Shown here piece after piece: positions 25,306 through 56,431 of a stretch of 63,530 nucleotides of DNA. The notes below the pieces were generated by a model. The model did no database searches, was not told the origin of the DNA, and worked only from the letters and a program-made list of their open reading frames with translations. The first letter of the stretch is position 1. Every line of letters starts with the position of its first letter. This DNA is from a virus (lineage: Duplodnaviria > Caudoviricetes). The position numbers and the translations under genes are program-made. Location of the stretch: positions 1 through 63,530 of IMG/VR virus record IMGVR_UViG_3300009705_000016; one strand, 5' to 3'.

Positions 25306-25515
25306 TTATCTATCAACTTTCTGAAACATGCCTTCTAATACTTGTTCTATAGCACCCATTACAGCATATTGGTCACCTCCCCAACTATCTTTATGTCGTT
25401 CAATTAAACGTTCAACAACATGTCTTAAGTCCTTTTCTAAACTATTCCACTTATCGTCGTCACTTACTTGCCAATAAGATTCTTCTCTTAATATTTTTTT
25501 AATTAGATGTTTCAT
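25306..25515 (-). CDS. Small hypothetical protein with short IxKILREE leader
   Basis: MKHLIKKILREE N-terminus; has its own TATTTAT element. Confidence 0.6.
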   Translation of the reverse strand: MKHLIKKILREESYWQVSDDDKWNSLEKDLRHVVERLIERHKDSWGGDQYAVMGAIEQVLEGMFQKVDR

Positions 25516-33103: not shown

Positions 33104-33877
33104 TCAAACGTTAAAACTTTTTTGAATTTCCGTGTCTGAGAAATTATCAACATCTTCTGGTGTTAAAATATATTCTTGTTTCCCTTGTTGCTCAAACTTT
33201 TCTTGACTATCGTCCCAAAAATCAGCAACTGATTTGTTAAACGGACCTGAATCCATTTTTCTGTTATTAATTTTTTCTCGTTCAGTTTGTGGTCTGAATT
33301 CTTCTATTTTTTGTTCTAGACTAGTGATTTGACCCATTAATTCGTCCATCCCTTCTAATTTATCTTCCATACCATCTAACATACCCATTAATGTGTCTAG
33401 TTTTTCATTAGTTTCTACTGATGAATTTTCTATAGATTCTTGTTTGTCCACCAAATCGGTAACTTCTACCTCGGTAGTATCTTCGTCCGCTACTGGTTCT
33501 GTTGTTTCTGCTGCTGGTGCTTCTGGTACTGGTGTTGTTGCTGGTGGCGGTGGTGGCGGTGGTGGTGCATCTGTAGCCCCAAGTTCCCCTTCTATATCGA
33601 CAGCAACTTCTTCGTCACCTACACCCATTTCAGCAAATGAACTTACATCGTCCATTGTCTCTTCATCTTCAATAGCTGCTTCTGGGTCTTCTTGTTCAGA
33701 CATTTCTAATTGTCTTGCTTTAAATTTTTCTAATCTAGGGGACCCTCCTTGTTTTGACATAAAACCAGAACCCCCACCTACAGTACCTAATGTTTGTTCC
33801 TCTAGGTTCATAGAATTGTACCCTATTTGGTTAAATCTTTTAACCTCTTCTTTTAGACTTTTCTCTAAGTTATCCAT
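33104..33877 (-). CDS. Acidic, poly-Pro, coiled-coil hypothetical protein (possibly head/scaffold-associated)
   Basis: PPPPPPPP tract, heptad-like LDTLMGMLDGMEDKLEGMDELMGQITSLEQKI, N-terminal LKEE/LEE sites. Confidence 0.55.
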   Translation of the reverse strand: MDNLEKSLKEEVKRFNQIGYNSMNLEEQTLGTVGGGSGFMSKQGGSPRLEKFKARQLEMSEQEDPEAAIEDEETMDDVSSFAEMGVGDEEVAVDIEGELGATDAPPPPPPPPATTPVPEAPAAETTEPVADEDTTEVEVTDLVDKQESIENSSVETNEKLDTLMGMLDGMEDKLEGMDELMGQITSLEQKIEEFRPQTEREKINNRKMDSGPFNKSVADFWDDSQEKFEQQGKQEYILTPEDVDNFSDTEIQKSFNV

Positions 33878-34112
33878 TTAATAATTGTTTTACCTCCCCA
33901 TTAGGTGATTCTACCTGAACCTTTCTATTGACTCTGGTTTCATTTTCTACTCTTTCTATTAATCCGTCTCTACTTCTTATAGTGTAACAAATACCAGTGT
34001 CTAAATCACACACTTCTTTAGATTCACCATCTATAGTGCTAGATTTTTCAACAATGTTTGTGTTTTTCCCTAAAAAATTATCTAATTTTCCTTTTAAATT
34101 TTCTGTTATCAT
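33870..34112 (-). CDS. Hypothetical protein (80 aa)
   Basis: ORF with CDLDTGIC motif; preceded by TATTTAT. Confidence 0.6.
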   Translation of the reverse strand: MITENLKGKLDNFLGKNTNIVEKSSTIDGESKEVCDLDTGICYTIRSRDGLIERVENETRVNRKVQVESPNGEVKQLLNG

Positions 34113-34156: not shown

Positions 34157-37100
34157 CTATACTGTCTTTTCTTCTTTAATATAGTCGGAACTAAAGTTAT
34201 TAGGATTCAAGAAAATCTCATCTTCACCCAACTTTTTATTAATTACATATTTTCTTATCTCATAATGTAAGTGTCTCGCTGATGAGTTTCCGGTAGTCCC
34301 CATTATTCCTACCCTAGTCCCTTTAGTAATGCCTGCACCTATCGCAAGATTAGATATTGTTTTCTCTTTTAGATGAGCTATCCTAAATTGGTATTTAGAA
34401 GTTGCTCCTTCTACCCAAGCGGTCACATCTGATTGTTTAATTAATACCTTATCAACCCACATATAATTACCATAACCACTACCAGGTGGTCCAGGACATG
34501 CATTACCAGTAATACTATCATCCTTAGCAGATTTACGAGGGAAACATCCAGTACCTTTTCCTGAAATAATACCAGAAACTGGTGATACAATAGAAATGTC
34601 TTCAGCGTCAAACTCTGCTTTAGGTAGGTAATCTATCCCTTTATGGTTATATGAAAACTTAAGTCCGGTTGTTGAATTGGTTTTTGTTCTTTTTGCCCAA
34701 AAAGCTTGGAAGGGTTTCGGGTTTAAAATTTTATTTAGGTCGAGCGGGTCTTGTATTGGGAAGTCTAACTCAGTAAAATCTTCTTCAGTATTAATCACAT
34801 TATTAGCAATCTCTTGTTCTGTTAGATTGTGGGCATCTAATGAAATGTCTTGTTTAGAAGGTGGTTCTACATCATCTATTACGTCAAAATGTTTTATTAA
34901 TTTAGTTTGTATAGTCGTAAGTAAATCAGTTACTTTAGGTAAACTAGTAATACCAACCCTAACTCCAGTAAATGTTGTTGTCATATCATTAGGAGATAAA
35001 CTATGACTAACATCCATGATAAGGTATGGACCACTAAACATAGGAACATATCTTAGTTGAAAATAGGTTGTTGGTTGAATTAATGCGTTACCCATACAGG
35101 TTACTGAACATTTATACGACCTAGATTTATATAAATTAAATAAATTTAAAGAGTTTGTTGAGACTTTGGACCCACTGGCCATTTTACCTAGGTCCTCTAG
35201 GATTCTAAAAGACTCACTTGTGTTTGGAAATTCAGATTGGGATAAAGCAATGCTTTCAAATATCTGTTGGTTTGGTATTCCAAAATCAACAGCGAAAGCC
35301 ATAATCTTATTACTTAATTGTCTTTCCTCTTCAGTCTTAGGTATCGGACCACATAATGGGTTTGGGTTTGTTCTGTTCAAAACAAACGAATCATTATTAT
35401 AACCATAGTTAAAACTTTTTATATCCAAGCTCTCAGATGGTTTACCCACATATTGACACAGGTATTTAGGTGAAGACTTTGTAGTGTCAACCTCTTTAAA
35501 AGCACCAAACATAGTATCTCCTTGTGCTTGTGTGTTGTTACCTTGCATGTTATAAAAATTAACATATGATGGTAATGCTATCCAATTAAAACCATTTGAT
35601 GCACATATACTACTCATAAATCCAGCGATAGTCTGTTTAACAGATGTACTTGGTTCGTCCGTAAATGGTGTGTCTAACCCTAAAAATGCATATATATCAA
35701 TAATAGCCTCACTTCCTATATCTCTATTACCGTTATCTAAGAACATAAACCTCTCCATAATGGTATTGTGAAAAGGTATATTAGTACCTGCTGTCCTACT
35801 TGTATTGACATCCACACCTTGTACTTTGGTGCCTGATATCCATTTATCGTTAAATGTTTTAAATACCTGGTACAATTCTAACTTTAAATTGTCTGCTATC
35901 ACTTTAGGTCTTTCATCATCGGTATCGCTACCTCCAGTGGGACTATCATCTAAAGCTTTTAATGGGTCCATTTTAGCGATAGATTTAAAAAATGTATTGG
36001 TGTATGCTTTGGTGGTATCTTCCATAGCCCGTAATTGATTCTTCAAAATTACGTCAAAATCACTCTTAGTCATTCCAACGTTACCACCTGGTGAATTCTT
36101 TTCTGTAAAAGTTAGATATAATTTAAGTATTGGGGCAAATTGTAACACCAATATATGTGATATGTCATAATTCTTAAAAAAATCAAAACATATTTGCACT
36201 TTTGATAGGAACCCTGTAAGTGGTAGTGGTGGTGTCGGTCTTGGGAAGACCCACTCAGAAATATCTAATGTAAAACCTGCTGTTGGACTTGGAACTGCAT
36301 TATCATACTTAGGTAATGGCATATAAGTTTTTAATGTACCCTTATCTAAAAGATAAAATATTAGTGATTTTGTTGTTGTTGTGTCTGACGTTAAAGAAGT
36401 TAGTGGTACTGTTATATCCCATCCATTCACAGACCCATGTTTGTAAATTACTGACTGATTTAAAAAGATTCTACATACACTTAAGAATTTTTTATATTGA
36501 CTTTTGGCTAATTCTTCTGTTGTTGGTTTGGGTGATTCCGATTCTACTTCAGATTTTTTAAGTAACATAAAATCTCTAAATATACTTTTAAACTCAGTGT
36601 ATTTTCCTTCTACAATACTAGCGTCTGGATTTTGTGGTTCTGAAAAATTTAAAAATTGTGTTTCAAACTCATCTAAAACTTGTTTTGGAAATACGGATAA
36701 TAACTCACTAAAAGTATCAGACCCACCAACTAAATTTAGGTTCCAAGCTTCTTGTTCCGGTTTTGTTATATTAATTCTTTTAAGGTAACTACATGCTGGT
36801 ACAAAACCATATATAGCTCCATAGGTACCGGGAACCCCTCCTTGTACGTCAAATGAACCGTAACCAGCTCCAGCCCACAAAAATCTAGCACTACCATCAA
36901 ACCCAGCAGTGTTTATGTTATCCCCCATAAAGCTTAAATCGGTATTTACCAAACCTCCCGCAGATGGGTAAAGAATATAGTACGGTTCTACGTTTGGGTC
37001 TAAATCTTTTACCCCCACATTCCCTATTGTAGCTGAATCAGCGAAAGTTGTATAAAAATCATAGGATAAACCACCTTGTGTAAAAGATAGATTTTCTTCT

Positions 37101-40100
37101 TTTTGCATCTCTAGTTGGAATGAACTTAAAAAATTACTCTGTACGTCAGCTACTGGAATCCAACTACCTACAGGACTTAGTATGTTTTTACCTGTAATAA
37201 TATTATGGGTTACGTCTATAAGTCGTGGCCAAAACCCTAAAGTTACATTTGTGGTGTTTAAACCTGGTAATATATTACCGTCATTTGTAAAATCATAAAA
37301 TCCGAATCCATTTGCTTGACCTGGGTCTACATACCATTTGTCACACGCGATATTACCATCTGCTCCAGTATCTACACCATCTATAGCACCTAAACCACCG
37401 AACACACTATCTTCTTCTGGTGTAGTTCCATTGTTTTTATAGTTCCACCAAAGTGAACCTATTTTTAAAATAAAAGAATATGGTAGTTCGTGATAACCGG
37501 CTAATTGTTTAATTAATTGTGCGACATACCCACCATATTGATTTTTTGAATCAAAATCTTTTATTACTTTTTCTAAAGTACTACTTACCGGTAATGAATT
37601 TAAAAATAAATAAGCTGCTTCCGTGTACGGAGTTGGTGACGGTGTGGTTTCCTTCAGGTTTGCCTTATGTATTGCATTTGCAAACCAAGGTGTGTTTAAC
37701 ATAGACACACATTGTTTTAAGCCTGAAGTATTGTTTATACCTTCTGTTAGAGGTTGTAACAGTATATCTTGTTCAGTAGTGTCATAATACTCTAACCAGT
37801 CGCTGACCCCCACAAATGTCTTTATAACGTCCAGTTGGTCTGGTTTTGTAATTATACCAAAATTACCATACTTATCTGATTCCCAATTTAGATTTGAAAA
37901 AAATAATTTGTGGTTTTCTGTGCCATACACATTTGTTTGTGCAGGCATATCTAATTCATCTATAATGAAGAAGTCTGTCCCTGAAGCTAGATTACCACCA
38001 TCAGCTAATTTAGAAAATAAACTAGGTGTTGTAAAATTAAAAGGAAAAAAATCAAAGAACCCATCTTTTGTTTTTTTACTTTCCATGTAAAGCTTTTTAT
38101 AATCTATATAATTTCCATTATTTGTATATTGTTCTTTCACACTAGACGTGGGATACAGTCCAAAATTAGTATCTTTTATATTGCTCACATTAACTCTGTT
38201 ATTTAAATAAGGTGTGTTTATGTAAGCATTTTCATATAATTTGTATCTATCCGGTGATAATTTCTCTAATTCCTTTAATAAAGAATCGTAATCAAACGTA
38301 TTACCTTGGAAAAATTCTCCTAAGTCTATATCCTCTTTAATAGATGTTTCTAAATTCTTACTATCATTATCTCCAGCTTCCATCATGACGGCACCTAGTT
38401 GAGCGGGTTTACCTAATTGGTAACCTGTGACTCCTACGTAATTTGAAAAATCTTCCGCTCTGTCTAGTATCTCCCACAGTATAGAAGTTTTTTGTTTTAT
38501 CGTATAAGCTTCGTTGGTGAATGGAAATTCTCTTACTGATATAGGGGCTAACTCTATAAACTTAACCTCATTACTCATTGGTTCTTGTACTAAATTCTTT
38601 CTCGTAAGGACGGATTTGGTATATTCCTCTATGAACTCTACTTCTGGCCAGGTTTTTTTACTGTATGCCTTTGTAGTGGATAGACTACCCGCTGCTCCTG
38701 GATATTTCAATACCAATTTATTTGATTCATCATCAAATTCATAGTATTGGGGCCAAGGAAATACAGTATGTTCCCCTTTTACGGCATCTTTATACATTTT
38801 CTTATCAGTTATAACTGCTTTAACTCTATCAGGGTTGTCTCTCTGTTCAAACGCTAATTCATGCACTCTATCGAGTATTCTTAAATAAGTGTCAACACCA
38901 GCTATTACAACAGCGGTTAAGTTTCTGATGGTTGGGTCTATTGTTAGACTCTCTTTAAATACCCTATTAATTTTCTTAGTTACCTCTTCTTGGATTATGT
39001 TGTGATTTTTTTCAAATTCCTCTAGAACTCTCGTAAACACCCCACCGAAACTTTTAGTTGTTTTATCCAAAACGTAGTACCCTTCTTCAGGTACATCATT
39101 TATATTCTTTGCGTTGGTACTTCTAGCTCTTTGGTTTTCTAATTTAAAATCTCTTATTAGGTTAACCGAAGCGGGACCTTTATCTAAACCAAATGTTTTA
39201 TTTTCACCTAATACTTTTTGATACCCTTCTAGAATATATCTTAGTTTACTTTCAGCCTTTTGAATGTATTCTGTAGTTGTTTCATTTAACCTAATAGCTG
39301 TAGCTATCACTCTTTTACCATCACCACTTGCTGAACCTACACTAACATCTAGTGGTATGTCATTATTTCTATCTACCGACCAATTTTCAACCCAACCATT
39401 AGTCCCAAAAATAGCATTATAAAAACTTTTAAGTTTTGCTTGGTATATGGTTTGGTCATTTGTAAATTGTAAGTCTACTTTTTTAAAATTATTCTTTAAA
39501 TTATCGGTAAACGATTCAACCCTACCAATTAATTCATATATAGTTAAATGTGGAAAATTTGGTTCTATGTATTTTAATTCTTTATAGATTTTATATACGT
39601 CATCCAATATTTTTCTACCCAGTCCGTTCGCTTGTGGGTCCTCATTACTAGAAACTTGTCTAGTTGCTGGGTACAAATATGGAGCTAACATAGCTTGTTG
39701 TAGGTTTATGTCGTTTAATAAAGCTATATGATTACCAATAAAGTTAGCTGTTATATTATAATCACCAGAAGAGGAATCAAAACTGGCTTGAAAATTAATT
39801 AACGCTAGTTGGTATTTTACTGCCTGACCATAGTACCCTTTGATTGTTAAATCGAATTGTGGGTATGGTAAATGGAAGAAAGCTGTGTATGGGGTGTTGG
39901 TTTCTGCTTGTTCAAATAATGTTTTACCTCTAATATCAACAAAAGTTATATCTACTTGTGGGACAAAGGAAGAACTTATTTTTATCTCTATATTTTTAAT
40001 CCCAAATCCTTGGAAGTCGTTTTTATTATCTATAGTTTTAGAAAAAAAGGTTTGTCCGTCTTCGGTGGTATCTTCGTGTCTTTGGATTTTATTCACGGAT

Positions 40101-40414
40101 GGGTCGGTAAACCCTTCTGTCCAGTCACTATCTAAAGAACTTTTACCAACTGGTTTTAAAAAATTAATCTCACCGTCAAATAAATCTATTTTAACCCCAG
40201 TGTCAGAAGCTCCTTGACCTACTATTAACTTAGACCTAGGTATTACTCTTGCTACTAAATTTACATAAATTACTAAATCTTCGTGCCTAACTAACCTATC
40301 TTCTATACTTTGTCCGTTAGCACTCGTTATTTTATTTGGGTCTATTAAAACTAGATTGTCACAAACTTGTTCAACATATACTTTCTCACTAGAGTTAATA
40401 ATATCATCTGCCAT
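34157..40414 (-). CDS. Giant baseplate hub-like protein with C-terminal M23 peptidase (tail-associated lysin)
   Basis: HKGID, YGNY, IAHL and MGTTGNSSARHLHYEIR M23 motifs; follows the LysM/gp53-like gene. Confidence 0.7.
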   Translation of the reverse strand: MADDIINSSEKVYVEQVCDNLVLIDPNKITSANGQSIEDRLVRHEDLVIYVNLVARVIPRSKLIVGQGASDTGVKIDLFDGEINFLKPVGKSSLDSDWTEGFTDPSVNKIQRHEDTTEDGQTFFSKTIDNKNDFQGFGIKNIEIKISSSFVPQVDITFVDIRGKTLFEQAETNTPYTAFFHLPYPQFDLTIKGYYGQAVKYQLALINFQASFDSSSGDYNITANFIGNHIALLNDINLQQAMLAPYLYPATRQVSSNEDPQANGLGRKILDDVYKIYKELKYIEPNFPHLTIYELIGRVESFTDNLKNNFKKVDLQFTNDQTIYQAKLKSFYNAIFGTNGWVENWSVDRNNDIPLDVSVGSASGDGKRVIATAIRLNETTTEYIQKAESKLRYILEGYQKVLGENKTFGLDKGPASVNLIRDFKLENQRARSTNAKNINDVPEEGYYVLDKTTKSFGGVFTRVLEEFEKNHNIIQEEVTKKINRVFKESLTIDPTIRNLTAVVIAGVDTYLRILDRVHELAFEQRDNPDRVKAVITDKKMYKDAVKGEHTVFPWPQYYEFDDESNKLVLKYPGAAGSLSTTKAYSKKTWPEVEFIEEYTKSVLTRKNLVQEPMSNEVKFIELAPISVREFPFTNEAYTIKQKTSILWEILDRAEDFSNYVGVTGYQLGKPAQLGAVMMEAGDNDSKNLETSIKEDIDLGEFFQGNTFDYDSLLKELEKLSPDRYKLYENAYINTPYLNNRVNVSNIKDTNFGLYPTSSVKEQYTNNGNYIDYKKLYMESKKTKDGFFDFFPFNFTTPSLFSKLADGGNLASGTDFFIIDELDMPAQTNVYGTENHKLFFSNLNWESDKYGNFGIITKPDQLDVIKTFVGVSDWLEYYDTTEQDILLQPLTEGINNTSGLKQCVSMLNTPWFANAIHKANLKETTPSPTPYTEAAYLFLNSLPVSSTLEKVIKDFDSKNQYGGYVAQLIKQLAGYHELPYSFILKIGSLWWNYKNNGTTPEEDSVFGGLGAIDGVDTGADGNIACDKWYVDPGQANGFGFYDFTNDGNILPGLNTTNVTLGFWPRLIDVTHNIITGKNILSPVGSWIPVADVQSNFLSSFQLEMQKEENLSFTQGGLSYDFYTTFADSATIGNVGVKDLDPNVEPYYILYPSAGGLVNTDLSFMGDNINTAGFDGSARFLWAGAGYGSFDVQGGVPGTYGAIYGFVPACSYLKRINITKPEQEAWNLNLVGGSDTFSELLSVFPKQVLDEFETQFLNFSEPQNPDASIVEGKYTEFKSIFRDFMLLKKSEVESESPKPTTEELAKSQYKKFLSVCRIFLNQSVIYKHGSVNGWDITVPLTSLTSDTTTTKSLIFYLLDKGTLKTYMPLPKYDNAVPSPTAGFTLDISEWVFPRPTPPLPLTGFLSKVQICFDFFKNYDISHILVLQFAPILKLYLTFTEKNSPGGNVGMTKSDFDVILKNQLRAMEDTTKAYTNTFFKSIAKMDPLKALDDSPTGGSDTDDERPKVIADNLKLELYQVFKTFNDKWISGTKVQGVDVNTSRTAGTNIPFHNTIMERFMFLDNGNRDIGSEAIIDIYAFLGLDTPFTDEPSTSVKQTIAGFMSSICASNGFNWIALPSYVNFYNMQGNNTQAQGDTMFGAFKEVDTTKSSPKYLCQYVGKPSESLDIKSFNYGYNNDSFVLNRTNPNPLCGPIPKTEEERQLSNKIMAFAVDFGIPNQQIFESIALSQSEFPNTSESFRILEDLGKMASGSKVSTNSLNLFNLYKSRSYKCSVTCMGNALIQPTTYFQLRYVPMFSGPYLIMDVSHSLSPNDMTTTFTGVRVGITSLPKVTDLLTTIQTKLIKHFDVIDDVEPPSKQDISLDAHNLTEQEIANNVINTEEDFTELDFPIQDPLDLNKILNPKPFQAFWAKRTKTNSTTGLKFSYNHKGIDYLPKAEFDAEDISIVSPVSGIISGKGTGCFPRKSAKDDSITGNACPGPPGSGYGNYMWVDKVLIKQSDVTAWVEGATSKYQFRIAHLKEKTISNLAIGAGITKGTRVGIMGTTGNSSARHLHYEIRKYVINKKLGEDEIFLNPNNFSSDYIKEEKTV

Positions 40415-48056: not shown

Positions 48057-48078
48057 TATACAATAACTATTATAAAAT

Positions 48079-48103
48079 AAAAAACTCACATAACTGTGAG
48101 TTT
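48079..48103 (-). terminator. Rho-independent terminator after the tail tube gene
   Basis: Minus strand aaactcaca-gtta-tgtgagtttttt. Confidence 0.8.
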
Positions 48104-48127
48104 CTTAATATTATATTTAAAATTAAA

Positions 48128-48616
48128 TTAGTAAACTAATATACATCTATCTGGTCTTAGTGTTGCTGCTATATTTGCCATACCCTCATCACTATAAGAT
48201 AGGTCATTGAAGTTTACGTCTGTTAAGAAACATCCTTGTAGTACCCACTTTTCTACCACTACCCCTGTTGGGTCTAACATTTCTAAATCTATATTCTTTT
48301 TATATCCAGCAGCGTAACCCATTCTACCTGTTACTGATTCTGCGTGTAATCTAACCCATTCCATCAATGCTTGTGAAGCTGAAGGACCAATCGGGTCTCT
48401 AAACGTTACATTGATTGTACCCCAAGTAAATCTACCAGCTACATACGTTGATGTATTTAGGAATGGTATTTCTACTGAACCTATTGTAACTTGTGGTCTT
48501 GATGTACTTTCTACGTACCACTCATTAATCCCTAAAGAAGAGTCAAATCTCATTATAAACCTATTCTTTTTCTTTGGTTCATACGGTACGGGCATTTTCA
48601 TTAATAAATCGGCCAT
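48128..48616 (-). CDS. Tail tube protein (T4 gp19-like)
   Basis: YEPKKKNRF, YVAGRFTWGTINVTFRD, GYAAGYKK, LDPTGVVVEKWVLQGCF. Confidence 0.9.
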   Translation of the reverse strand: MADLLMKMPVPYEPKKKNRFIMRFDSSLGINEWYVESTSRPQVTIGSVEIPFLNTSTYVAGRFTWGTINVTFRDPIGPSASQALMEWVRLHAESVTGRMGYAAGYKKNIDLEMLDPTGVVVEKWVLQGCFLTDVNFNDLSYSDEGMANIAATLRPDRCILVY

Positions 48617-48679: not shown

Positions 48680-49543
48680 TTAACTATCAATCTTAGATAC
48701 TATAATCTTATTTTTTTCTCCTTGTGATGTGTCATAAATAAAAAATTCCACACCAGGATATTCTATAGATAATTCTTTTTTGATAAAATCCATAACAGAT
48801 TCTATATTTTTTCTATCATCATCACTAAACCCAATACTTAATCTATCGTATTCTCCATCTGTTAATTTTTTAACTCCATTCACAACCTTTTCTACATAAT
48901 CTCTTAATGCTATTTTTTTACCTTCTTCTGGTCTATCAGCAGCAGCAGAATCCAAACCAAACTTATCTTTAAACTCTGAAGATGTAACTGGCGAATAATC
49001 ATTTTGTGATAAATAAAAATCTATTTTTTCTTCCATGTTCATGTCTTGGGTTGAGGGGTATACATTTTCTATACTGTTTAACATTTGTTTGACTTCGGAT
49101 GGGTTAAAGGTCATACCAATTACAGTTCGGACACCTTCTTTTATTGCGTGAGGTGGTGTACCCCTTGCGGTAATAATGGAGAATGGGTGTGCGTTTATTA
49201 AAGATTCTTTAAGTTTTTCGAAACTAGGTGCAAACTTTTTATCTTCTATTGCTTTTTTAACATCTGAAATAAATGTTTGTGGTTCTTCAAAATCCATAAA
49301 AGAATGGTCCGTTAATCTATATTCACTATCATTTCTTACGTCCGCAAAATCTTCTGTACTTACATTTGTGGGTACCCAATCTAAACCATCTTTTTTTTCC
49401 ATCTTAATTTCGGTAGGCATAAAAAGTATATTATCATCCCAATCAAAAGCATAACCACGTATTTTATCTGTGGTCATTACCTCACCTATTTCTTTAATTA
49501 ATTTGGTTAATTGTATTTCTGTTAGAATTAAACTTCTTTTCAT
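48680..49543 (-). CDS. HAD-superfamily phosphatase/nucleotidase-like protein with N-terminal LTExQL leader
   Basis: Motif I YAFDWDDNIL, motif II IITARG, motif IV IGFSDDD. Confidence 0.65.
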   Translation of the reverse strand: MKRSLILTEIQLTKLIKEIGEVMTTDKIRGYAFDWDDNILFMPTEIKMEKKDGLDWVPTNVSTEDFADVRNDSEYRLTDHSFMDFEEPQTFISDVKKAIEDKKFAPSFEKLKESLINAHPFSIITARGTPPHAIKEGVRTVIGMTFNPSEVKQMLNSIENVYPSTQDMNMEEKIDFYLSQNDYSPVTSSEFKDKFGLDSAAADRPEEGKKIALRDYVEKVVNGVKKLTDGEYDRLSIGFSDDDRKNIESVMDFIKKELSIEYPGVEFFIYDTSQGEKNKIIVSKIDS

Positions 49544-49569: not shown

Positions 49570-49598
49570 AAAAAAACCCCACATTTCTGTAGGGTTTT
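49570..49598 (-). terminator. Rho-independent terminator
   Basis: Minus strand aaaaccctaca-gaaa-tgtgggg followed by a T run; GNRA loop. Confidence 0.8.
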
Positions 49599-49620: not shown

Positions 49621-49812
49621 TTACCAGTGTCTCATTTTAATAGATTCTTCATATTCAACAAAACCTACAATTTTGTCTAATTTCTCGTTTATCTCAGCAA
49701 ATTGTTCGTCATAATTTTTAGAACTAGCACCAATAACCTCTTCTTCTTCTTTAATTATTGTTTTTTTAATTATGTTAATTAATTCACGTTCTGTTAGTCT
49801 TATTTTTTTCAT
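49621..49812 (-). CDS. Small protein with KIxLTExEL leader (63 aa)
   Basis: MKKIRLTERELINIIKKTIIKEEE. Confidence 0.7.
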   Translation of the reverse strand: MKKIRLTERELINIIKKTIIKEEEEVIGASSKNYDEQFAEINEKLDKIVGFVEYEESIKMRHW

Positions 49813-49824
49813 AATAATTTTATA

Positions 49825-50748
49825 TTAACAAGGTAATGGTGTACCATCTGGTGGACATTCAGCAAACCAATTTGCAAATTTGAGCCATGTCCTTCTCCAC
49901 CATCCTTTTCCACCATCTTTTATTATCGGTGGTATAACTAACCTACCTGAAGATTCATACTGACTAACCATCATTTGTACCGCACCAATAATTTCCTGCA
50001 ATTCTGGAATCATTCCATGTAGTCCACCAAGTGATTGTCCGTCTTTACCTACAGATTCTGGTGTAAGGGTTTGCATAAAAGATGATGCTGAATTTAAAGA
50101 ACCCATTAATGGTACAAGTTGGCTCATCATTCTTGCGTCTTCTCCGGATGCTTTACCTTCATCTCTTCCATCTGTTTCCATTTGTTCATTACCTGCGGCC
50201 ATTGGGTCATTAGAACCACCACCTTGAGATTGTCCACCCATCCAACCATCTATATCCATATCTGGTAAGAATACTGTACCTTTTGTTAAATCAGGCATCT
50301 CCCATCGTCTTTCGTTTATAACCCTTCCAATAACTCTAGATAAATCTCTTTCAGATAGTCTAGTTTTTCTTGGGTTAACTCTTTCAAAATCAACATCTAA
50401 CATTCCATAGTCTACCTTTTTATAACCATTACTAGATACTTTTACTGCTCGTCTTGGTGCTTGTTCAGCAAGAACCCCTCTAAACGTTCCTTTACCGAAT
50501 CTAGTTTTATTTTTATACTCAAATTCATAAATTGGTATTCCTGATGGAGATTTACCAACTCGTCTTATATTTTTCTTTAGTCTTGAGTCTGAATCAAACC
50601 ATCCATGTATTGTATCAAGTACTTTGCCAATTGCGAGTAAATCAAGCACCCAAGATTTCCATCTCCACTCAAGTAATAATTGTGATTCAGAAATTGTACG
50701 AACTATTCTCGTTAAGTCTGATTCTTTTAATCTAATTGTTTTTGCCAT
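49825..50748 (-). CDS. Two-leader polyprotein-like protein with peptidase S74 (intramolecular chaperone) domain
   Basis: Leader at aa 1-27; SDSRLKKNI...GIPIYEFEY...FRGVLAEQ...VDYGML at aa 53-121; second leader RKTRLSERDLSRVIGRVINE at aa 127-146. Confidence 0.7.
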   Translation of the reverse strand: MAKTIRLKESDLTRIVRTISESQLLLEWRWKSWVLDLLAIGKVLDTIHGWFDSDSRLKKNIRRVGKSPSGIPIYEFEYKNKTRFGKGTFRGVLAEQAPRRAVKVSSNGYKKVDYGMLDVDFERVNPRKTRLSERDLSRVIGRVINERRWEMPDLTKGTVFLPDMDIDGWMGGQSQGGGSNDPMAAGNEQMETDGRDEGKASGEDARMMSQLVPLMGSLNSASSFMQTLTPESVGKDGQSLGGLHGMIPELQEIIGAVQMMVSQYESSGRLVIPPIIKDGGKGWWRRTWLKFANWFAECPPDGTPLPC

Positions 50749-50840: not shown

Positions 50841-51074
50841 TTAATACCTGTCCCTGTCCCAAGGCCATCTAAAATCACAGCACCCCATACCAAATATACA
50901 ACAAAGCCACTTTAATTGTTGTGGGTCCGTATTTGGTGGAACAGTTACACCCATCCTATCACTTAAATCTGTAAGGTGTTCAGTTGCTTTATTACCTTCT
51001 CCTCTATCTTGTTCACTAACGACTCTACGTATAAGTCTAGTTAGGTCTTTTTCTGTTAATTTAATTTTTCTCAT
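50841..51074 (-). CDS. Small leader-bearing protein with CCx5CC peptide (77 aa)
   Basis: MRKIKLTEKDLTRLIRRVVSEQ...KWLCCIFGMGCCDFRWPW. Confidence 0.7.
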   Translation of the reverse strand: MRKIKLTEKDLTRLIRRVVSEQDRGEGNKATEHLTDLSDRMGVTVPPNTDPQQLKWLCCIFGMGCCDFRWPWDRDRY

Positions 51075-52309
51075 ATTACACTTGGATTATATTTATTTCC
51101 TGCTTTATTTACTCTATTGAACCATTTTTTCATATCTTTTATGTCAGATTCAGTAATAGGGTTTGTAGTTTTTAATGTTCTTCTCTCAGTTGTTATATTC
51201 CCTTGAGTAGGTGGTGTTGAGTTACATGGTACTTCTGGACAAGACTTAGGACAACGTTTCCCAGGGGTAACACTATATGGTTTTTTACCTACACATTTAC
51301 AACACCTTTTCTTTTTAGGTGATGTTGTAGATGTACTACTAGAATCATCCTCTCCCATTTCTTGCTCTCTTTTTCTTCTACCACCATCTTTATCAATTCC
51401 AGCTTGTTTTACTTGTCTGATAAAATCTTTAAAACTTTTTGGTTTAGGGTGGTTTTCAAATACATCAGGATTTGCTACCATGAAGTCTTGAAATGCTTCT
51501 TCATTTTCTTCTGGTGGTCTAACCATCCACCAATCTCTACCACGACCATATTTAAACAATCCCCAAGCTGTTGTTAGTATTGAAAGCCATAAAACTTCAT
51601 TTATAGGTTGTCTACCACTTTGTTCTTCAAACATACCCCTGATTGTGTCTATTGGTGAACCCTCACAACATTTCATTCTCAATGCACAACAGAAAAAACC
51701 ACCTAGTATCCACTTACCTTGAGGTGTACCACTTGGTTTTGGAGGCATTGTACCCGACCTAAGATGTTTTGCACATAAACTTTCATTTCCACCTGCAGAT
51801 TTACAAGCTTTCATATTTTCCGGTGTGTCAAATTTACCTTTTTGTTTACCTCTCCCGGTATCTCTCTCCCTTAAGTCTTGTCTACCTCTCTTTTTCTCAC
51901 CTAAGGCTCTATCACGCAAACTAACAAACTCTCTATGACTTTTTGGTTTTGGTCCACCTTCAAATACATCAGGATTTGCTACCATGAAATCTTGAAATGC
52001 TTCTTCGGTTTCGTTTGGTGGTATAGTCATCCACCATCCCTCATCCTTTCCGTATTTGTAAATATCCCAAGCTAACAGAAGTGCCTTAATCCACCATTCC
52101 GTTAATAATTGTTTATTTTCATTTAGTTGTCTACCTTTTGGCTTTTGGACTCGTTTTATTCTATTAGCCACTGGATTAATCTTACTAATTAATCTTTGTA
52201 ATTGTTGTTCACTTACAACCATTTTTTGTTTTTTATTTTTAGTATAGGTTTTCCTATTACTTTTAGGTAACCCTATTTCCTCTGATAAAATTTGTTTTTT
52301 AAATTTCAT
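51071..52309 (-). CDS. Modular polyprotein-like protein with duplicated Trp-rich cassette and Cys modules (412 aa)
   Basis: GRQ...E linkers; two W-rich peptide + EEAFQDFMVANPDVFE modules; CCx5CC and CCxC...C...C...C modules. Confidence 0.7.
   Translation of the reverse strand: MKFKKQILSEEIGLPKSNRKTYTKNKKQKMVVSEQQLQRLISKINPVANRIKRVQKPKGRQLNENKQLLTEWWIKALLLAWDIYKYGKDEGWWMTIPPNETEEAFQDFMVANPDVFEGGPKPKSHREFVSLRDRALGEKKRGRQDLRERDTGRGKQKGKFDTPENMKACKSAGGNESLCAKHLRSGTMPPKPSGTPQGKWILGGFFCCALRMKCCEGSPIDTIRGMFEEQSGRQPINEVLWLSILTTAWGLFKYGRGRDWWMVRPPEENEEAFQDFMVANPDVFENHPKPKSFKDFIRQVKQAGIDKDGGRRKREQEMGEDDSSSTSTTSPKKKRCCKCVGKKPYSVTPGKRCPKSCPEVPCNSTPPTQGNITTERRTLKTTNPITESDIKDMKKWFNRVNKAGNKYNPSVI
51455..52006. 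repeat. 48-bp in-frame direct repeat, 2 copies 504 bp apart, 1 mismatch
   Basis: ttcaaatacatcaggatttgctaccatgaa(g/a)tcttgaaatgcttcttc at 51455-51502 and 51959-52006. Confidence 0.9.
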
Positions 52310-52318
52310 ATCTGTCTA

Positions 52319-55300
52319 TTATATATCTTCAAATGAAGCTCCTGTAGGAGTTATTAGGAATTCAATAAATATGAATTCAAGTGCTCTTGTTGGTTTAATG
52401 TAAATCTTACCGTTCATCTCATTTCTATCGATTTCTTCTGGGTCGTCTGATAACACAACTCTAAAGTCTGTTAAACCTCTATCTCTTCTTATAGAGTCTA
52501 ATATAGGGTTAACTAGGTCTAAGAATTGTTGTCTTACCACATCATCATTTTGTTCAAATAATAATCTAACCGCAACTGCTGAAATCAGTTTTCTAGTTTG
52601 TAATAATAATCTTCTTACATTTATTCTATCTAACGCTGATTCTTTAACTTGTAACGTCTTATTACCAAAGATAATCGGGCCTACATCACTAAATGTAGCG
52701 ATTGGATTAAGTCTACCAACATATAATGTATCTCTATCGTCTAGAGTTAGTTTTGTTCTAGCTTTAATTGCGTTAACAATACCTCTAGTATATCCAGCCG
52801 ATGCGAACCATGGGAAAGCTATATTATCTGTTAATGCTAAATTTCTAGTAACCTCACCTGTTGGTGGGATATACAATTGTTTGTTCGTATTGTTATCTCT
52901 AACTAGAACCCATGGGTAATAAGTTGCTGTATAGTTAGAATCTATAAAACTGTCTTCCATATTATTAACAGCTTCTGTTGGACTTATTTTGTTACTAGCG
53001 TCTGTAGTTGAGTTGATAAATAGGTTATAATCTGGTGTTGTTGTAATATAAAGTGAATCAGCTCTCTCAGTTTCTACCATGTCTATAGCGTCGTTTACTA
53101 AAGCTAAATTATTTACATAATCCACACCTGGAGTCGCAAACACATTAATGTCTACAGCTTCTGGATTTTCAAATTTATGTATTGCTTGTCTATAAGCGTC
53201 ATAATCAGTATTAGATTCTGTTGTAGAAATCCTTTTAAAAGAACCTAGACCAGTAGCGTCTGTATAAGTTGAGTCGGCACATGCTCCGTATTTGTAACCT
53301 GTCATCCCCAGTCTATACCCATCTAGATTTGTTCTAGTTTTTCTATACTCATCCCATCCGTCAAAACCACCATAAGGTACTAACGTGAATTTTCTAGATT
53401 GTATCTTATAATAAGGGTCTGTTGTTTTAGTTGGTTCTGATTGGAACGAAGCGTCACCCACCATAAACATAGACTTACCACTTAATGTACTAGCTGTTTC
53501 TGTTAAATAAGAACCAGAACCTGCTATAACTACAGTAGCTCCAGAATCCATGTGGAATCCTTGTGTTAAGTTTGGCCAATCACTACCTGTTGTACTAGTA
53601 CAAACAGATGTTGGTGTTTTAAACCCTTTATACTCAAAGAAATCATAATCAATTGCTGCTCCATCACCTGTTGAGTATCCTAGGTAGTTTTTTCTAATAT
53701 TATCACCAGCTGAAATTGAAGAGTTGCTCATACCTCCCGTAGAATTATAGTATGGGTCAAATATTGTTTCACCTGGGGTGAAATATTTAGTTTTCCATTT
53801 TGGGTAAGGGTTTACCGTACTACTACAAGATTCTCTAAATTTATAACCCTCAAATCCTGCTGGTAAAGCGTCCTTTAAGTCACCATCGACAACCGCATCT
53901 GCTAATTCTAACATTGTATATGTAGATTTTAACTCATATTCACCATCTGAAGTACCAATTTTTCTAGCTATAAAGTTTGGTGCTGTCGGGTCTAGTGTAC
54001 ATCTTGTGTATTTTTCAAAAACTATAGGGTTAGCATCTGTATCGTAGAAATCTCTAATAACCACATCAAACTCAACTCTTTCAAAAGAAATGTTTGTTAA
54101 TGATATTTTATATTCTCTATTACCTGATGAACCGTCTGATATAGATATAAATCTAAATAATCTAGAAACTTCATTACCTCGTAATTCCGAAACAACATAT
54201 GGTGTTCTAGGTGTTTGCCATTCATTCATGTACCAACCTAAAGATGTTCTATTAGTATTATTCCATCTTGCCGCTGGAAGATAACATACACAACAATTTA
54301 TTCCTCTAATTTTTTGTCTTCTATATAAATATTTTAATAAGTTAGGGTAAATTTCTTCTACAAAAATAGGAATTTCATTACTATCTCTATCAAATACTTT
54401 TCTTCCCAACACTCTTGATAAATAATTTTTCTTACTACTATCTAAAGATGTTGTAAATTTAGATACAACACCATCGTCAGTTTTTGCTGAAATTCCGAAG
54501 TCAGCAAATGGGTCTCTTAATATGTCTTCATAAGTCCCGTCACAATTAAAGTTTACGTCACCTTGTTTGTAACCGTCTCCTGTACTTGCACTAATTTTAT
54601 ATACTGGTCCACCAGTTGTTAATGTACTTTCACCTCTGGACCTTAAAGTTGCGATTGTCATATTGTGGTATTCCGTATCCGCACTTACACAGTCGTACGT
54701 TGAGTAACAACCACTTAATGTCATAGCTAAATAAGTTACCGCTGAACAACTTCCAGTATAGAATGTCGTAAAGGCTGAAACAGAGTTACCGGTAAAGAAC
54801 CAACTATTAGCTGGGTCTGCACTTATACTGTTATTCACTACCATACCCGCTGTTACAGCCGCTGAACCACCGTACACCAGACTATTGATAAACTTGACAT
54901 TATCACCTGTCCCACCTGGTATTAAACCAGTATTGGAGAATCCACTTATAGTTACCTGTACGGCCGTATAAGATGGTGAACTACCACCAATAGATGTTCC
55001 TGCACAACTTTGTAATTGATAGTCGGTTACCCCTCCTGAATATTGTACCGCGTTAAATGTTTCTACAGCTGCAGATAATGTACTACCTGTACCATTTGAC
55101 CCCACAAAAGGGTAAACAGTAGGTTTATATGCTGATAAACCCAACATACCAGCCCCCACATCACTACCCCAAACTTGACCTCCCGAATAAGAGAAGTAAT
55201 TATTCACACTAAAACCACCAGGTACATTGTTACCAGCGTTAGTATCTGCACCAAAGAACGACCATTCACCCCATGAGGTTGCCGATGTTGATGCTGTATA

Positions 55301-56431
55301 ACTATTTAAGTTAGTAACGTAAGTTGAACTTCCTTCACTTATTAAGTTTGGTAAAATAGCGTAAACCGTAGTTGATGTCTTATTGTCTGATGAACCGGAT
55401 ACACCTGTTAAAGTGGCTCCTTCTACATATGTTGTAGCTGTAACCGCTGAAGACGCGAACATACTAAATGAACCACCTGAATAACAACTATTTCTACAAT
55501 CAGTACCACCAGTTCCATAATCAAATAAACTATTATACCAACCATCGTTTGTGTCACCTGAAAAATCTGCGGATTGTATAGCGTTAGGGTATGTTGCTCC
55601 TGCTCCAGCTTCTCCTGGTCCTAAATCGGACTCAACACCTAATCTATTATAAACATCGACTGGTAAACCTGTCATACCTGTAATAGATGCGAATTGTATA
55701 GCTGTACATCCTGTAGGTATAAAACCATAGTGGTAATATTCAGTAGCTCCTGTTTCGTTGAATGAACTTTGGTTATTATTTAATACGTTATTGGTAAAGT
55801 GGGCTATATCCTGAACTAAGGTCCCTACAGAATCTCCTTCACCGTCATACATTGTTTCACCCGTTATCTTATTTGTTGTTCTAAATGGACCATTTTCTCC
55901 CCCAACTAATCCTGTTCCTACTGTAGCACCACTTAAAGCATCTGCAAATGCAGCGGTAACGTGATTTAACGTACTATAAATGTTAGATGCGTTTATTGTA
56001 CCACCTGTAAGTGGAACGTAAACAATGTCTGACCACCCTGTTGAGGTCATAGCTGTTGAATTAGTAGCCACATGTAATGGGTCCAACTCACCAATAGTTA
56101 ATAATTGCCATGATGGACCAGCATCATAACCAGATAAACCCAATACCCTTGTTATGAATAACTGATTTGATTGTGATAGATAAGACCGTGCTATAAATGA
56201 AGTCTCATATTTAGGAATTTGTGAGTCCGTATACTTTTCTGGGTCGGTATCCCCAAATCGATTTCTAAAGGAGTCGAAAGAATCTATAAATATAGGTTCA
56301 AACGCTGGTCCCTTTTTAGTTTCACCAACAACCCCTAAAGTTGTCACTCCCACACTCTGCGCTACGAAGGTTAAATCTTTCTCCGCGGTATAAACACCGG
56401 GAGATACGAATACTTTTGAATTTTCTGCCAT
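52319..56431 (-). CDS. Tail sheath protein (gp18-like) with a large insertion
   Basis: FVSPGVYTAEKD, GETKKGPAFEP, YYPWV, PWFASAGYTRG, GNKTLQ...ALDRINVRRLL, IKPTRALEFI. Confidence 0.93.
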   Translation of the reverse strand: MAENSKVFVSPGVYTAEKDLTFVAQSVGVTTLGVVGETKKGPAFEPIFIDSFDSFRNRFGDTDPEKYTDSQIPKYETSFIARSYLSQSNQLFITRVLGLSGYDAGPSWQLLTIGELDPLHVATNSTAMTSTGWSDIVYVPLTGGTINASNIYSTLNHVTAAFADALSGATVGTGLVGGENGPFRTTNKITGETMYDGEGDSVGTLVQDIAHFTNNVLNNNQSSFNETGATEYYHYGFIPTGCTAIQFASITGMTGLPVDVYNRLGVESDLGPGEAGAGATYPNAIQSADFSGDTNDGWYNSLFDYGTGGTDCRNSCYSGGSFSMFASSAVTATTYVEGATLTGVSGSSDNKTSTTVYAILPNLISEGSSTYVTNLNSYTASTSATSWGEWSFFGADTNAGNNVPGGFSVNNYFSYSGGQVWGSDVGAGMLGLSAYKPTVYPFVGSNGTGSTLSAAVETFNAVQYSGGVTDYQLQSCAGTSIGGSSPSYTAVQVTISGFSNTGLIPGGTGDNVKFINSLVYGGSAAVTAGMVVNNSISADPANSWFFTGNSVSAFTTFYTGSCSAVTYLAMTLSGCYSTYDCVSADTEYHNMTIATLRSRGESTLTTGGPVYKISASTGDGYKQGDVNFNCDGTYEDILRDPFADFGISAKTDDGVVSKFTTSLDSSKKNYLSRVLGRKVFDRDSNEIPIFVEEIYPNLLKYLYRRQKIRGINCCVCYLPAARWNNTNRTSLGWYMNEWQTPRTPYVVSELRGNEVSRLFRFISISDGSSGNREYKISLTNISFERVEFDVVIRDFYDTDANPIVFEKYTRCTLDPTAPNFIARKIGTSDGEYELKSTYTMLELADAVVDGDLKDALPAGFEGYKFRESCSSTVNPYPKWKTKYFTPGETIFDPYYNSTGGMSNSSISAGDNIRKNYLGYSTGDGAAIDYDFFEYKGFKTPTSVCTSTTGSDWPNLTQGFHMDSGATVVIAGSGSYLTETASTLSGKSMFMVGDASFQSEPTKTTDPYYKIQSRKFTLVPYGGFDGWDEYRKTRTNLDGYRLGMTGYKYGACADSTYTDATGLGSFKRISTTESNTDYDAYRQAIHKFENPEAVDINVFATPGVDYVNNLALVNDAIDMVETERADSLYITTTPDYNLFINSTTDASNKISPTEAVNNMEDSFIDSNYTATYYPWVLVRDNNTNKQLYIPPTGEVTRNLALTDNIAFPWFASAGYTRGIVNAIKARTKLTLDDRDTLYVGRLNPIATFSDVGPIIFGNKTLQVKESALDRINVRRLLLQTRKLISAVAVRLLFEQNDDVVRQQFLDLVNPILDSIRRDRGLTDFRVVLSDDPEEIDRNEMNGKIYIKPTRALEFIFIEFLITPTGASFEDI

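Follow-up and report, generated by a model that had tools for sequence, protein, structure and literature searches.

Proteolysis inside the prohead of bacteriophage T4 follows the motif L/I-X-E: the propeptide of gp23 is 65 residues long, targeting propeptides comprise 10 to 19 residues (7 to 19 for short N-terminal propeptides), Alt is cut at both ends and loses its propeptides, the core proteins gp22 and gp67 are fragmented, and Asp in place of Glu at the cleavage position blocks processing of IPIII (PMC9026906). The internal proteins of T4 are diverse and have the targeting sequence alone in common (PMC3012670). Here, we describe a gene for a 412-residue basic protein that lies directly after the tail sheath gene in IMG/VR record IMGVR_UViG_3300009705_000016. 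The whole 63.5-kb record, estimated to be about 20% complete, was analyzed and is called the window below. We tentatively propose that its product is a carrier polyprotein which, in this T4-related marine phage, would be targeted to the capsid through its conserved ends and processed into several small proteins. The genes of the window, as recognized with Pfam and PHROGs, are those of a distant T4 relative and include sheath, gp19-type tube, gp27-like hub, wedge proteins, UvsX, a gp32-like single-stranded DNA-binding protein, and a DnaB-type helicase; identity of the sheath to deposited phages is at most about 31%.

The 412-residue protein belongs to a family that has no name. Searches of Pfam (E up to 5) and PHROGs returned no family for it or for the 77- and 63-residue proteins encoded nearby, a tblastn search of 50,697 deposited phage genomes gave no match to it, and full-text literature searches, which were directed at T4 internal proteins and protease-cut head proteins, turned up no description of such a protein. 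A large protein collection contained homologs, 30 of similar length and 12 shorter, most of the latter apparently cut at contig ends. A 47-residue N-terminal head (N-head) is common to 27 of the 30, and the close family also has a C-terminal tail (C-tail) of about 36 residues. Isoelectric points (pI) of 8.8 to 10.4 and net charges of +11 to +54 were found in 27 of the 30 as well; the remaining three represent a second protein family that shares a single cysteine module, module B, with the first. When 19 N-heads were aligned, six columns only were invariant (M1, E10, K26, Q28, E34, and Q36), and an N-head profile recovered 92 cluster representatives from 1.84 billion proteins. The profile also matches a 3,076-residue protein with 12 short stretches. 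In all 33 of the related intervals that were tabulated, the family gene sits between sheath and tube. We conclude that the N-head defines an undescribed family with a hypervariable middle and a fixed place after the sheath.

The 412-residue protein (pI 9.7, net charge +31, 12 Cys, and 11 Trp) is built of four small modules, two Trp-rich hairpins and two Cys-rich domains, set between the 47-residue head and a 37-residue tail (Table 1). The N-head holds a basic leader that closes with I-L-S-E(10), a second site at V-S-E(34), and a helix that opens Q-L-Q-R-L-I. A first-pass annotation, made by a model from the letters of the stretch, had pointed out Trp-rich stretches at residues 72 to 93 (52031-52096) and 239 to 261 (51527-51595), a 16-residue follower behind each that is encoded by 48-nucleotide blocks identical at 47 positions, two Cys modules, and recurring linkers. 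All of these are present, including six Cys in each Cys module, three linkers of the form G-R-Q...[LI]-x-E, and the M-G-E and P-I-T-E sites. The annotation read each Trp unit as a variable core with a constant follower, and here the repeat stood but the division did not. The two units form a 116-nucleotide direct repeat, 82% identical with a spacing of 504 nucleotides, and core plus follower is a single duplicated domain of about 65 to 80 residues, of which diverged homologs occur as whole units in other family members. The identity at 47 of 48 positions is less striking than it first appears, because conserved residues outside the block also mostly retain the same codon in both copies. AlphaFold2 (AF2) modeled copy 1 as a helical hairpin with helices at residues 63 to 89 and 98 to 116. 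Membrane-spanning Trp helices were considered and rejected because the highest 19-residue Kyte-Doolittle mean is 0.87; with modest hydrophobic moments of 0.26 to 0.31, the annotation's membrane-active amphipathic helices were not borne out either.

Structure prediction argues for a chain of parts. From a 25-row alignment, AF2 gave a mean predicted local distance difference test score (pLDDT) of 58.7 and a predicted template modeling score (pTM) of 0.26, with confident islands (residues 31 to 40, 121 to 140, 160 to 190, 270 to 300, and 331 to 360) among low-confidence segments (49 to 64, 91 to 98, 152 to 159, 191 to 267, 309 to 330, and 366 to 381), and the ESM Atlas model reached a pTM of 0.20. 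Because both pTM values are low and the islands lie between low-confidence linkers, the protein is predicted to be modular and not a single globular unit, in line with the nonglobular architecture that the annotation had envisaged. The ESM Atlas yielded no usable feature match, all structural rows having template modeling scores below 0.31, and a wide structure search with the full model returned generic helical hairpins only (residues 60 to 119; best Z 5.5, root mean square deviation [rmsd] 3.6, 59 aligned).

The modules are exchangeable. At least five types occur in the family, in varying number and order: the Trp hairpin, Cys module B, Cys module C, a four-Cys module D, and a Lys-rich helical module. 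Nearly all members of the close family carry module C, and module B appears in 13 distinct contexts, including the second protein family with its other termini, and is weakly similar to the neighboring 77-residue protein (E 0.001). DNA comparison with eight relatives, 70 to 87% identical in the sheath, gave a backbone that is conserved except for two variable cassettes. Homology passes through about the first 40 codons of the 412-residue gene, ends at 52176-52193 in all eight relatives, and resumes at the C module or the C-tail (51181-51328) in five of them. Homology disappears a second time across the 77-, 307-, and 63-residue genes, of which the 307-residue gene is kept in one relative only, and is back upstream of the 287-residue gene in all eight. 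We conclude that relatives exchange modules in a cassette that occupies the middle of the gene. The module shuffling that the annotation had expected among syntenic relatives was found, modules differing in number and kind even among close ones. That modules are swapped while the flanking DNA stays about 80% identical points to diversifying pressure of the kind seen at host-interaction loci.

What joins the modules resembles what is cut in the T4 prohead. In every family member, cutting after [LIVM]-x-E matches the module boundaries by eye. Relative to shuffled sequences, [LI]-x-E is enriched 3.3-fold in the 30 homologs (159 versus 48.1 expected; 0 of 300 shuffles reach this number), stands at 95 versus 31.2 expected in 18 nonredundant members, and is enriched 2.7-fold in the variable middles of 15 members (3,902 residues; 41 versus 15.2; 0 of 1,000 shuffles). 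Control motifs behaved otherwise: [LI]-x-D occurs at 1.46-fold, [LI]-x-Q at 0.51-fold, E-x-[LI] at 1.16-fold, [AGS]-x-E at 0.73-fold, and [KR]-x-E at 0.35-fold. The 412-residue protein alone has 7 motifs versus 3.0 expected (p 0.02), its 307-residue neighbor has 9 versus 2.6, and the motif stands 6 to 8 residues ahead of the first Cys of module D in 10 of 11 distinct contexts. When the same count was calibrated on T4, multiply cut substrates gave 2.78-fold (gp22), 2.73-fold (gp21), 2.45-fold (gp68), and 1.99-fold (gp23), versus 0.76- to 1.40-fold for sheath, tube, and portal. IPII, IPIII, and Alt are at about 1-fold overall; these three, together with gp67, gp68, and gp24, begin with a 6- to 10-residue peptide that closes with [LI]-x-E. 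We conclude that the motif pattern matches that of T4 prohead-protease substrates in kind and strength.

The same kind of beginning is found along the cassette. Five consecutive genes, from the 412- to the 287-residue gene, open with Met, basic residues, and I/L-x-L-(T/S/K)-E, a leader of 8 to 10 residues closing with L-x-E, and the helix that follows has the first turn x-(D/E/Q)-L-x-x-(L/I)-(I/V). An [LI]-x-E closing within the first 12 residues is present in 10 of 42 nonoverlapping open reading frames (ORFs) of the window, 5 of 5 in the cassette and 5 of 37 elsewhere; the five cassette leaders are paralogous, and therefore these fractions describe rather than test. The motif occupies residues 8 to 10 and 31 to 33 in 24 of 24 distinct N-heads, I-L-S-E being residues 7 to 10 here. 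Leaders of 287-residue homologs carry [LI]-x-E 10 to 13 residues before the motif of the haloacid dehalogenase (HAD) fold in 26 of 26 distinct cases, and the leader motif is kept across clades with only about 30% identity. Three more ORFs of the window (25306-25515, 33104-33877, and 33870-34112, all on the minus strand) start with a short peptide closing with [LI]-x-E and lack the cassette leader sequence. We also note a second recurrent N-terminal motif in other small proteins, E-x-x-R-I-(R/K) and then (L/M)-(H/M)-G (L080 10852-11043, L096 5822, P0016, P0021, and P0023), some of which have the leader helix at the C terminus.

A T4-type prohead protease is present in the lineage. Peptidase_S77 is absent from the window, a fragment at about 20% completeness, and is encoded by G012, a 94-kb relative with a sheath 64% identical, the same sheath/N-head/287-residue/tube synteny, and a 289-residue family member. 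The G012 protease (E 6e-27) is 32% identical to T4 gp21 and is accompanied by a Gp23 capsid protein (E 2e-64), in which BLASTP places I-N-E(60)|A opposite the L-T-E(65)|A of T4 gp23. The [LI]-x-E motif is enriched 1.44-fold (p 0.06) in the G012 scaffold and 2.2-fold in a 246-residue protein encoded between portal and protease. Moreover, the leader motif marks four genes in G012, one of which adjoins the capsid gene. The leader-bearing proteins of 169 and 127 residues are encoded beside the capsid gene and near the record end (L089 6710-7219 [+]; G012 89617-90000 [-]), and the former has an internal second leader followed by a small Cys-rich end. The annotation had proposed that a prohead protease cuts at the linkers, and a motif of the prohead-protease type at the junctions, with the protease itself in one relative, is consistent with that proposal.

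How such a carrier might work can be outlined. It would be made late with the sheath, whose gene lies on the same strand and ends 9 nucleotides before the 412-residue gene starts. The N-head, and probably the C-tail, would direct it to the core of the prohead, a task that falls to capsid targeting sequences in Alt and the internal proteins of T4, and a T4-type prohead protease would cut after the Glu of [LI]-x-E at module junctions. Small basic, Cys- or Trp-rich domains of 5 to 9 kDa would be released, remain with the packaged DNA, and perhaps enter the host along with it. The basic character is what DNA-associated internal proteins would have, and DNA binding is the most plausible role of those parts that are basic or resemble S-P-K-K. 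The gene middle serves as the cassette in which modules are swapped between relatives, and the four downstream genes with the same kind of short leader may be single-cargo versions of the carrier.

Several observations weigh against a capsid-targeted carrier. The gene is inside the tail module and outside the head module, which in G012 is about 50 kb from the sheath/N-head locus, and no head gene was found in the window, fragment that it is. Peptidase_S77 gave no match in 12 of 13 related records (11 fragments that are 5 to 29% complete, and one of 214 kb that is 71% complete). By eye, the N-head has no likeness to the T4 targeting sequence; the format alone is common to both (Met, a few residues, and hydrophobic-x-Glu). 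In 28 further members recovered with the head profile, [LI]-x-E beyond the head is enriched only 1.59-fold (132 versus 82.8) and the reversed control E-x-[LI] is also at 1.41-fold, and a strict 11-member subset falls to 1.24-fold, a value reached by 31 of 500 shuffles. The strong signal is therefore that of the Cys- and Lys-module branch. The residue at P3 is T, F, or M instead of L or I at several junctions, and a blind test on breakpoints from all-versus-all BLASTP, itself noisy, put 22% of them within 3 residues of a motif versus 14% at random. Finally, P2 is N, T, S, or D at 28 of the 41 middle sites, and many sites read hydrophobic/N-cap/E-x-(D/E/Q)/hydrophobic. A hydrophobic staple with a capping box is the textbook start of a helix. 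Part of the [LI]-x-E signal may be structural, because so many sites resemble capped helix starts.

The N-head also occurs in other settings, and these weigh on the same side. In a distant clade with sheaths 49 to 58% identical, the post-sheath gene is the N-head alone, an ORF of 45 to 46 residues (L037 3820-3957; the same place in L036, L038, L039, L053, L054, L059, L060, L066, L076, and L083). The stop of this ORF overlaps the start codon of the gene that follows, the HAD-fold 287-residue homolog, which suggests that the two are translationally coupled. In L096 (5822-8170), the N-head forms the C-terminal end of a 782-residue ORF of unknown family with hydrophobic stretches, again between sheath and HAD-fold gene, and this build is common to four cluster representatives; Pfam and PHROGs returned nothing for the 688- to 782-residue fused forms except one subthreshold kinase-like row. 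Found alone or C-terminally, the N-head is therefore not simply an N-terminal signal.

The main alternative is an uncut modular protein, possible though somewhat unlikely in our estimate. The N-head would be a small element with a structural or assembly role, either in the tail region or in DNA condensation, the variable domains would be fused to it, and the motifs would be helix N-caps and linkers. The invariable place between sheath and tube, the solitary and C-terminal N-heads, the low enrichment in the wider family, the N-cap residues at P2, and the position of E34, E238, and E387 at predicted helix starts all favor that explanation. It does not account, however, for an enrichment that is specific to Glu over Asp and Gln and to L or I at P3, for motifs ahead of Cys modules that are not helical (module D), or for a level of enrichment equal to that of multiply cut T4 head proteins, and capping leaves two invariant Glu residues of the N-head unexplained. 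Alternatively, and improbably, the protein might be an internal or ejection protein that travels by another route, such as the tail lumen with the tape measure, with processing, if any, by for instance the S74-type self-cleaving domain of the 307-residue neighbor. The gene does lie within an operon of tail genes, and that S74-like domain matches PHROGs annotated as virion structural and DNA ejection proteins, but the 412-residue protein itself has no S74 domain by Pfam or PHROGs, and the leader motif is also carried by the gene beside the G012 capsid gene. That the protein is a multicore precursor of ribosomally synthesized and posttranslationally modified peptides (RiPPs), as the annotation's analogy implied, with Trp stretches as cores and the invariant 16 residues as a recognition follower, is highly improbable: two diverged cores do each precede an identical follower, but the copies number only two, each core makes one helical-hairpin domain with its follower, diverged homologs of that domain exist, the units are folded domains of 40 to 80 residues, and among 37 window proteins scanned with Pfam and PHROGs there is no modifying enzyme, dedicated protease, or transporter, all in the context of a phage structural operon.

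Table 1. Genes and segments between the sheath and tube genes of the window, in the order in which they are read
Feature	Position	Strand	Basis
Tail sheath, 1,370 residues (upstream flank)	52319..56431	-	Pfam, PHROGs
412-residue modular basic protein	51071..52309	-	Open reading frame
Conserved N-head, residues 1-47	52169..52309	-	Alignment, profile, DNA homology
Basic linker, residues 48-71, with L-N-E(64) and L-T-E(71)	52097..52168	-	AF2 pLDDT <50 at 49-64
Trp-rich helical-hairpin module, copy 1, residues 72-138	51896..52096	-	Repeat search, AF2
48-nucleotide block, copy-1 follower	51959..52006	-	47/48 identical to 51455-51502
Linker, residues 139-148, last three L-R-E	51866..51895	-	Motif cutting
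Cys module B, residues 149-228; 6 Cys, including hydrophobic CC...CC stretch	51626..51865	-	Recurs in family
Linker, residues 229-238, last three I-N-E	51596..51625	-	Motif cutting
Trp-rich helical-hairpin module, copy 2, residues 239-320, last three M-G-E	51350..51595	-	Repeat search; AF2 follower helices pLDDT 83-87
48-nucleotide block, copy-2 follower	51455..51502	-	47/48 identical to 51959-52006
Cys module C, residues 321-375; S-P-K-K-like basic start, 6 Cys	51185..51349	-	pLDDT 80-92
Conserved C-tail, residues 376-412; I-T-E(387), then helix	51074..51184	-	Invariant alignment columns; DNA homology
77-residue protein; N terminus closes with L-T-E(8); CC...CC motif	50841..51074	-	Start overlaps stop of 412-residue gene
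307-residue protein with S74-like domain	49825..50748	-	Pfam, PHROGs
63-residue protein, N-terminal motif in common with cassette	49621..49812	-	N-terminal comparison
287-residue HAD-fold phosphatase-like protein; flexible 24-residue leader bearing motif	48680..49543	-	AF2 and structure search
Tail tube (downstream flank)	48128..48616	-	Pfam, PHROGs

Downstream of the sheath, the 412-, 77-, 307-, 63-, and 287-residue genes follow one another before the tube, and the S74 gene is not adjacent to the 412-residue gene as the annotation had it, since the 77-residue gene lies between them. The 307-residue protein opens with the leader motif and continues with a Trp-rich helix, the S74-like domain (residues 53 to 119), and a second motif copy near residue 131, and the S74-like domain is also followed by a Gly/Met/acidic stretch and a Trp/Cys-rich end. 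Its match to Pfam Peptidase_S74 scores 20.7 bits (E 5e-4), below the gathering cutoff of 22. Stronger matches came from PHROGs at the domain level, to the C-terminal domain of families labeled "virion structural protein" (E 1.5e-11) and "DNA ejection protein" (E 7.4e-08). Ser and Lys at residues 53 to 58 are spaced S-x4-K, which fits the S74 catalytic pair. S74-type domains are normally C-terminal, and this one is near the N terminus. If the protein cleaved itself, a peptide of about 52 residues would be released.

The 287-residue protein was modeled by AF2 as a confident HAD fold (pLDDT 83.7, pTM 0.82) from which residues 1 to 24 extend as a detached, low-confidence segment. Foldseek found nothing for the model at E <= 0.001. 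The wide VIA search gave as best structural match the 3'-phosphatase domain of T4 polynucleotide kinase (PNK)-phosphatase (5uj0_B; Z 10.0, rmsd 3.0, 132 aligned), followed by Pnkp1 (Z 9.3) and T4 PNK (Z 8.9), and these PNK-type matches are about 1.5 to 2 Z units above generic HAD hydrolases. We regard the protein as a candidate 3'-phosphatase acting on nucleic acids, and its leader may be removable.

Other features of the neighborhood are noted here. The sheath (52319-56431, minus strand) is unusually long at 1,370 residues versus 1,068 to 1,144 in relatives, and the extra length is within its poorly conserved first half. Terminator-like hairpins follow the 63-residue gene (49573-49598, minus strand) and the tube gene (48078-48107, minus strand), which suggests two transcription units, sheath/412/77/307/63 and 287/tube. 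The octamer TATAAATA on the plus strand, TATTTATA on the gene strand, is found in short gaps directly upstream of minus-strand genes (44846, 47055, 48651, 49548, and 50783; also 25522, 34127, and 63252). In the window, the count of the octamer/T4 late-promoter motif, 17 versus 14.9 expected, is not above chance; regularly placed as it is, the octamer may be a lineage-specific late promoter or translation-start element. Finally, a 2,085-residue protein (34157-40414, minus strand), whose sole match is a C-terminal peptidase/endolysin-like region at residues 2003 to 2066, may be a tail-associated lysin.

If the carrier is what we propose, it would be the first natural T4-like case of several different cargo proteins from one protease-processed chain, and a large group of uncultured aquatic phages would share a conserved, transferable handle for loading capsids. 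Such a handle would be useful to spot injected effectors from sequence alone, and the proposal predicts exact new N termini that are checkable in existing viral metaproteomes. We speculate, with considerable doubt, that the portable 45-residue handle is a general capsid-loading device in an uncultured T4-related clade and that the marine branch turned it into a polyprotein whose mini-domains, which are interchangeable and Cys rich, Trp rich, or basic, are freed by the prohead protease and injected along with the DNA as fast-evolving early effectors. On the same speculative reading, these effectors would be anti-defense, DNA-coating, or envelope-active, and the gene would correspond, on its own, to the hyperplastic loci for internal proteins that T-even phages have. 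Even without cutting, the gene is undescribed, with a hypervariable middle at a fixed post-sheath position.

Among known systems, the internal proteins IPI, IPII, and IPIII of T4 and Alt come first. Like them, the 412-residue family has a short N-terminal leader that closes with L/I-x-E, highly diverse small basic cargo behind a conserved leader, and a T4-type protease in a relative, and the C-terminal propeptide that Alt loses (PMC9026906) parallels the conserved C-tail. The leader sequences are dissimilar, however, and the family has several cargo modules per chain where T4 has one per gene, a head of 47 residues with two sites that can stand alone or C-terminally, and a locus between sheath and tube. 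Likeness to gp22, gp67, and gp68 lies in the excess of [LI]-x-E, 2.5- to 2.8-fold in T4 and 2.7- to 3.3-fold in the close family, and in an N terminus that closes with the motif. The T4 proteins, in contrast, are helical, with an acidic tail in gp67, have their genes in the head module, and are discarded, whereas the family is basic, Cys/Trp rich, and mosaic and has its gene in the tail module, not next to those for portal and protease. A further comparison is with the inner-body and ejection proteins of phiKZ-like giant phages (phiKZ, 201phi2-1, and SPN3US), in which a gp21-related protease cuts head proteins after Glu at multiple sites, long propeptides are chopped, and families of paralogs occur (PMC9026906; PMC10052503). 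The motif of these phages, S/A-x-E, however, is depleted in the 412-residue family (0.46- to 0.73-fold), and the phiKZ-like proteins are large with one mature part and, by PHROGs and tblastn, showed no similarity to the 412-residue protein. Multicore RiPP precursors of the cyanobactin type likewise have repeated units with one conserved flank, but the 412-residue gene has two repeats only, domains that are folded and 40 to 80 residues long, no maturation genes nearby, and the setting of a phage structural operon.

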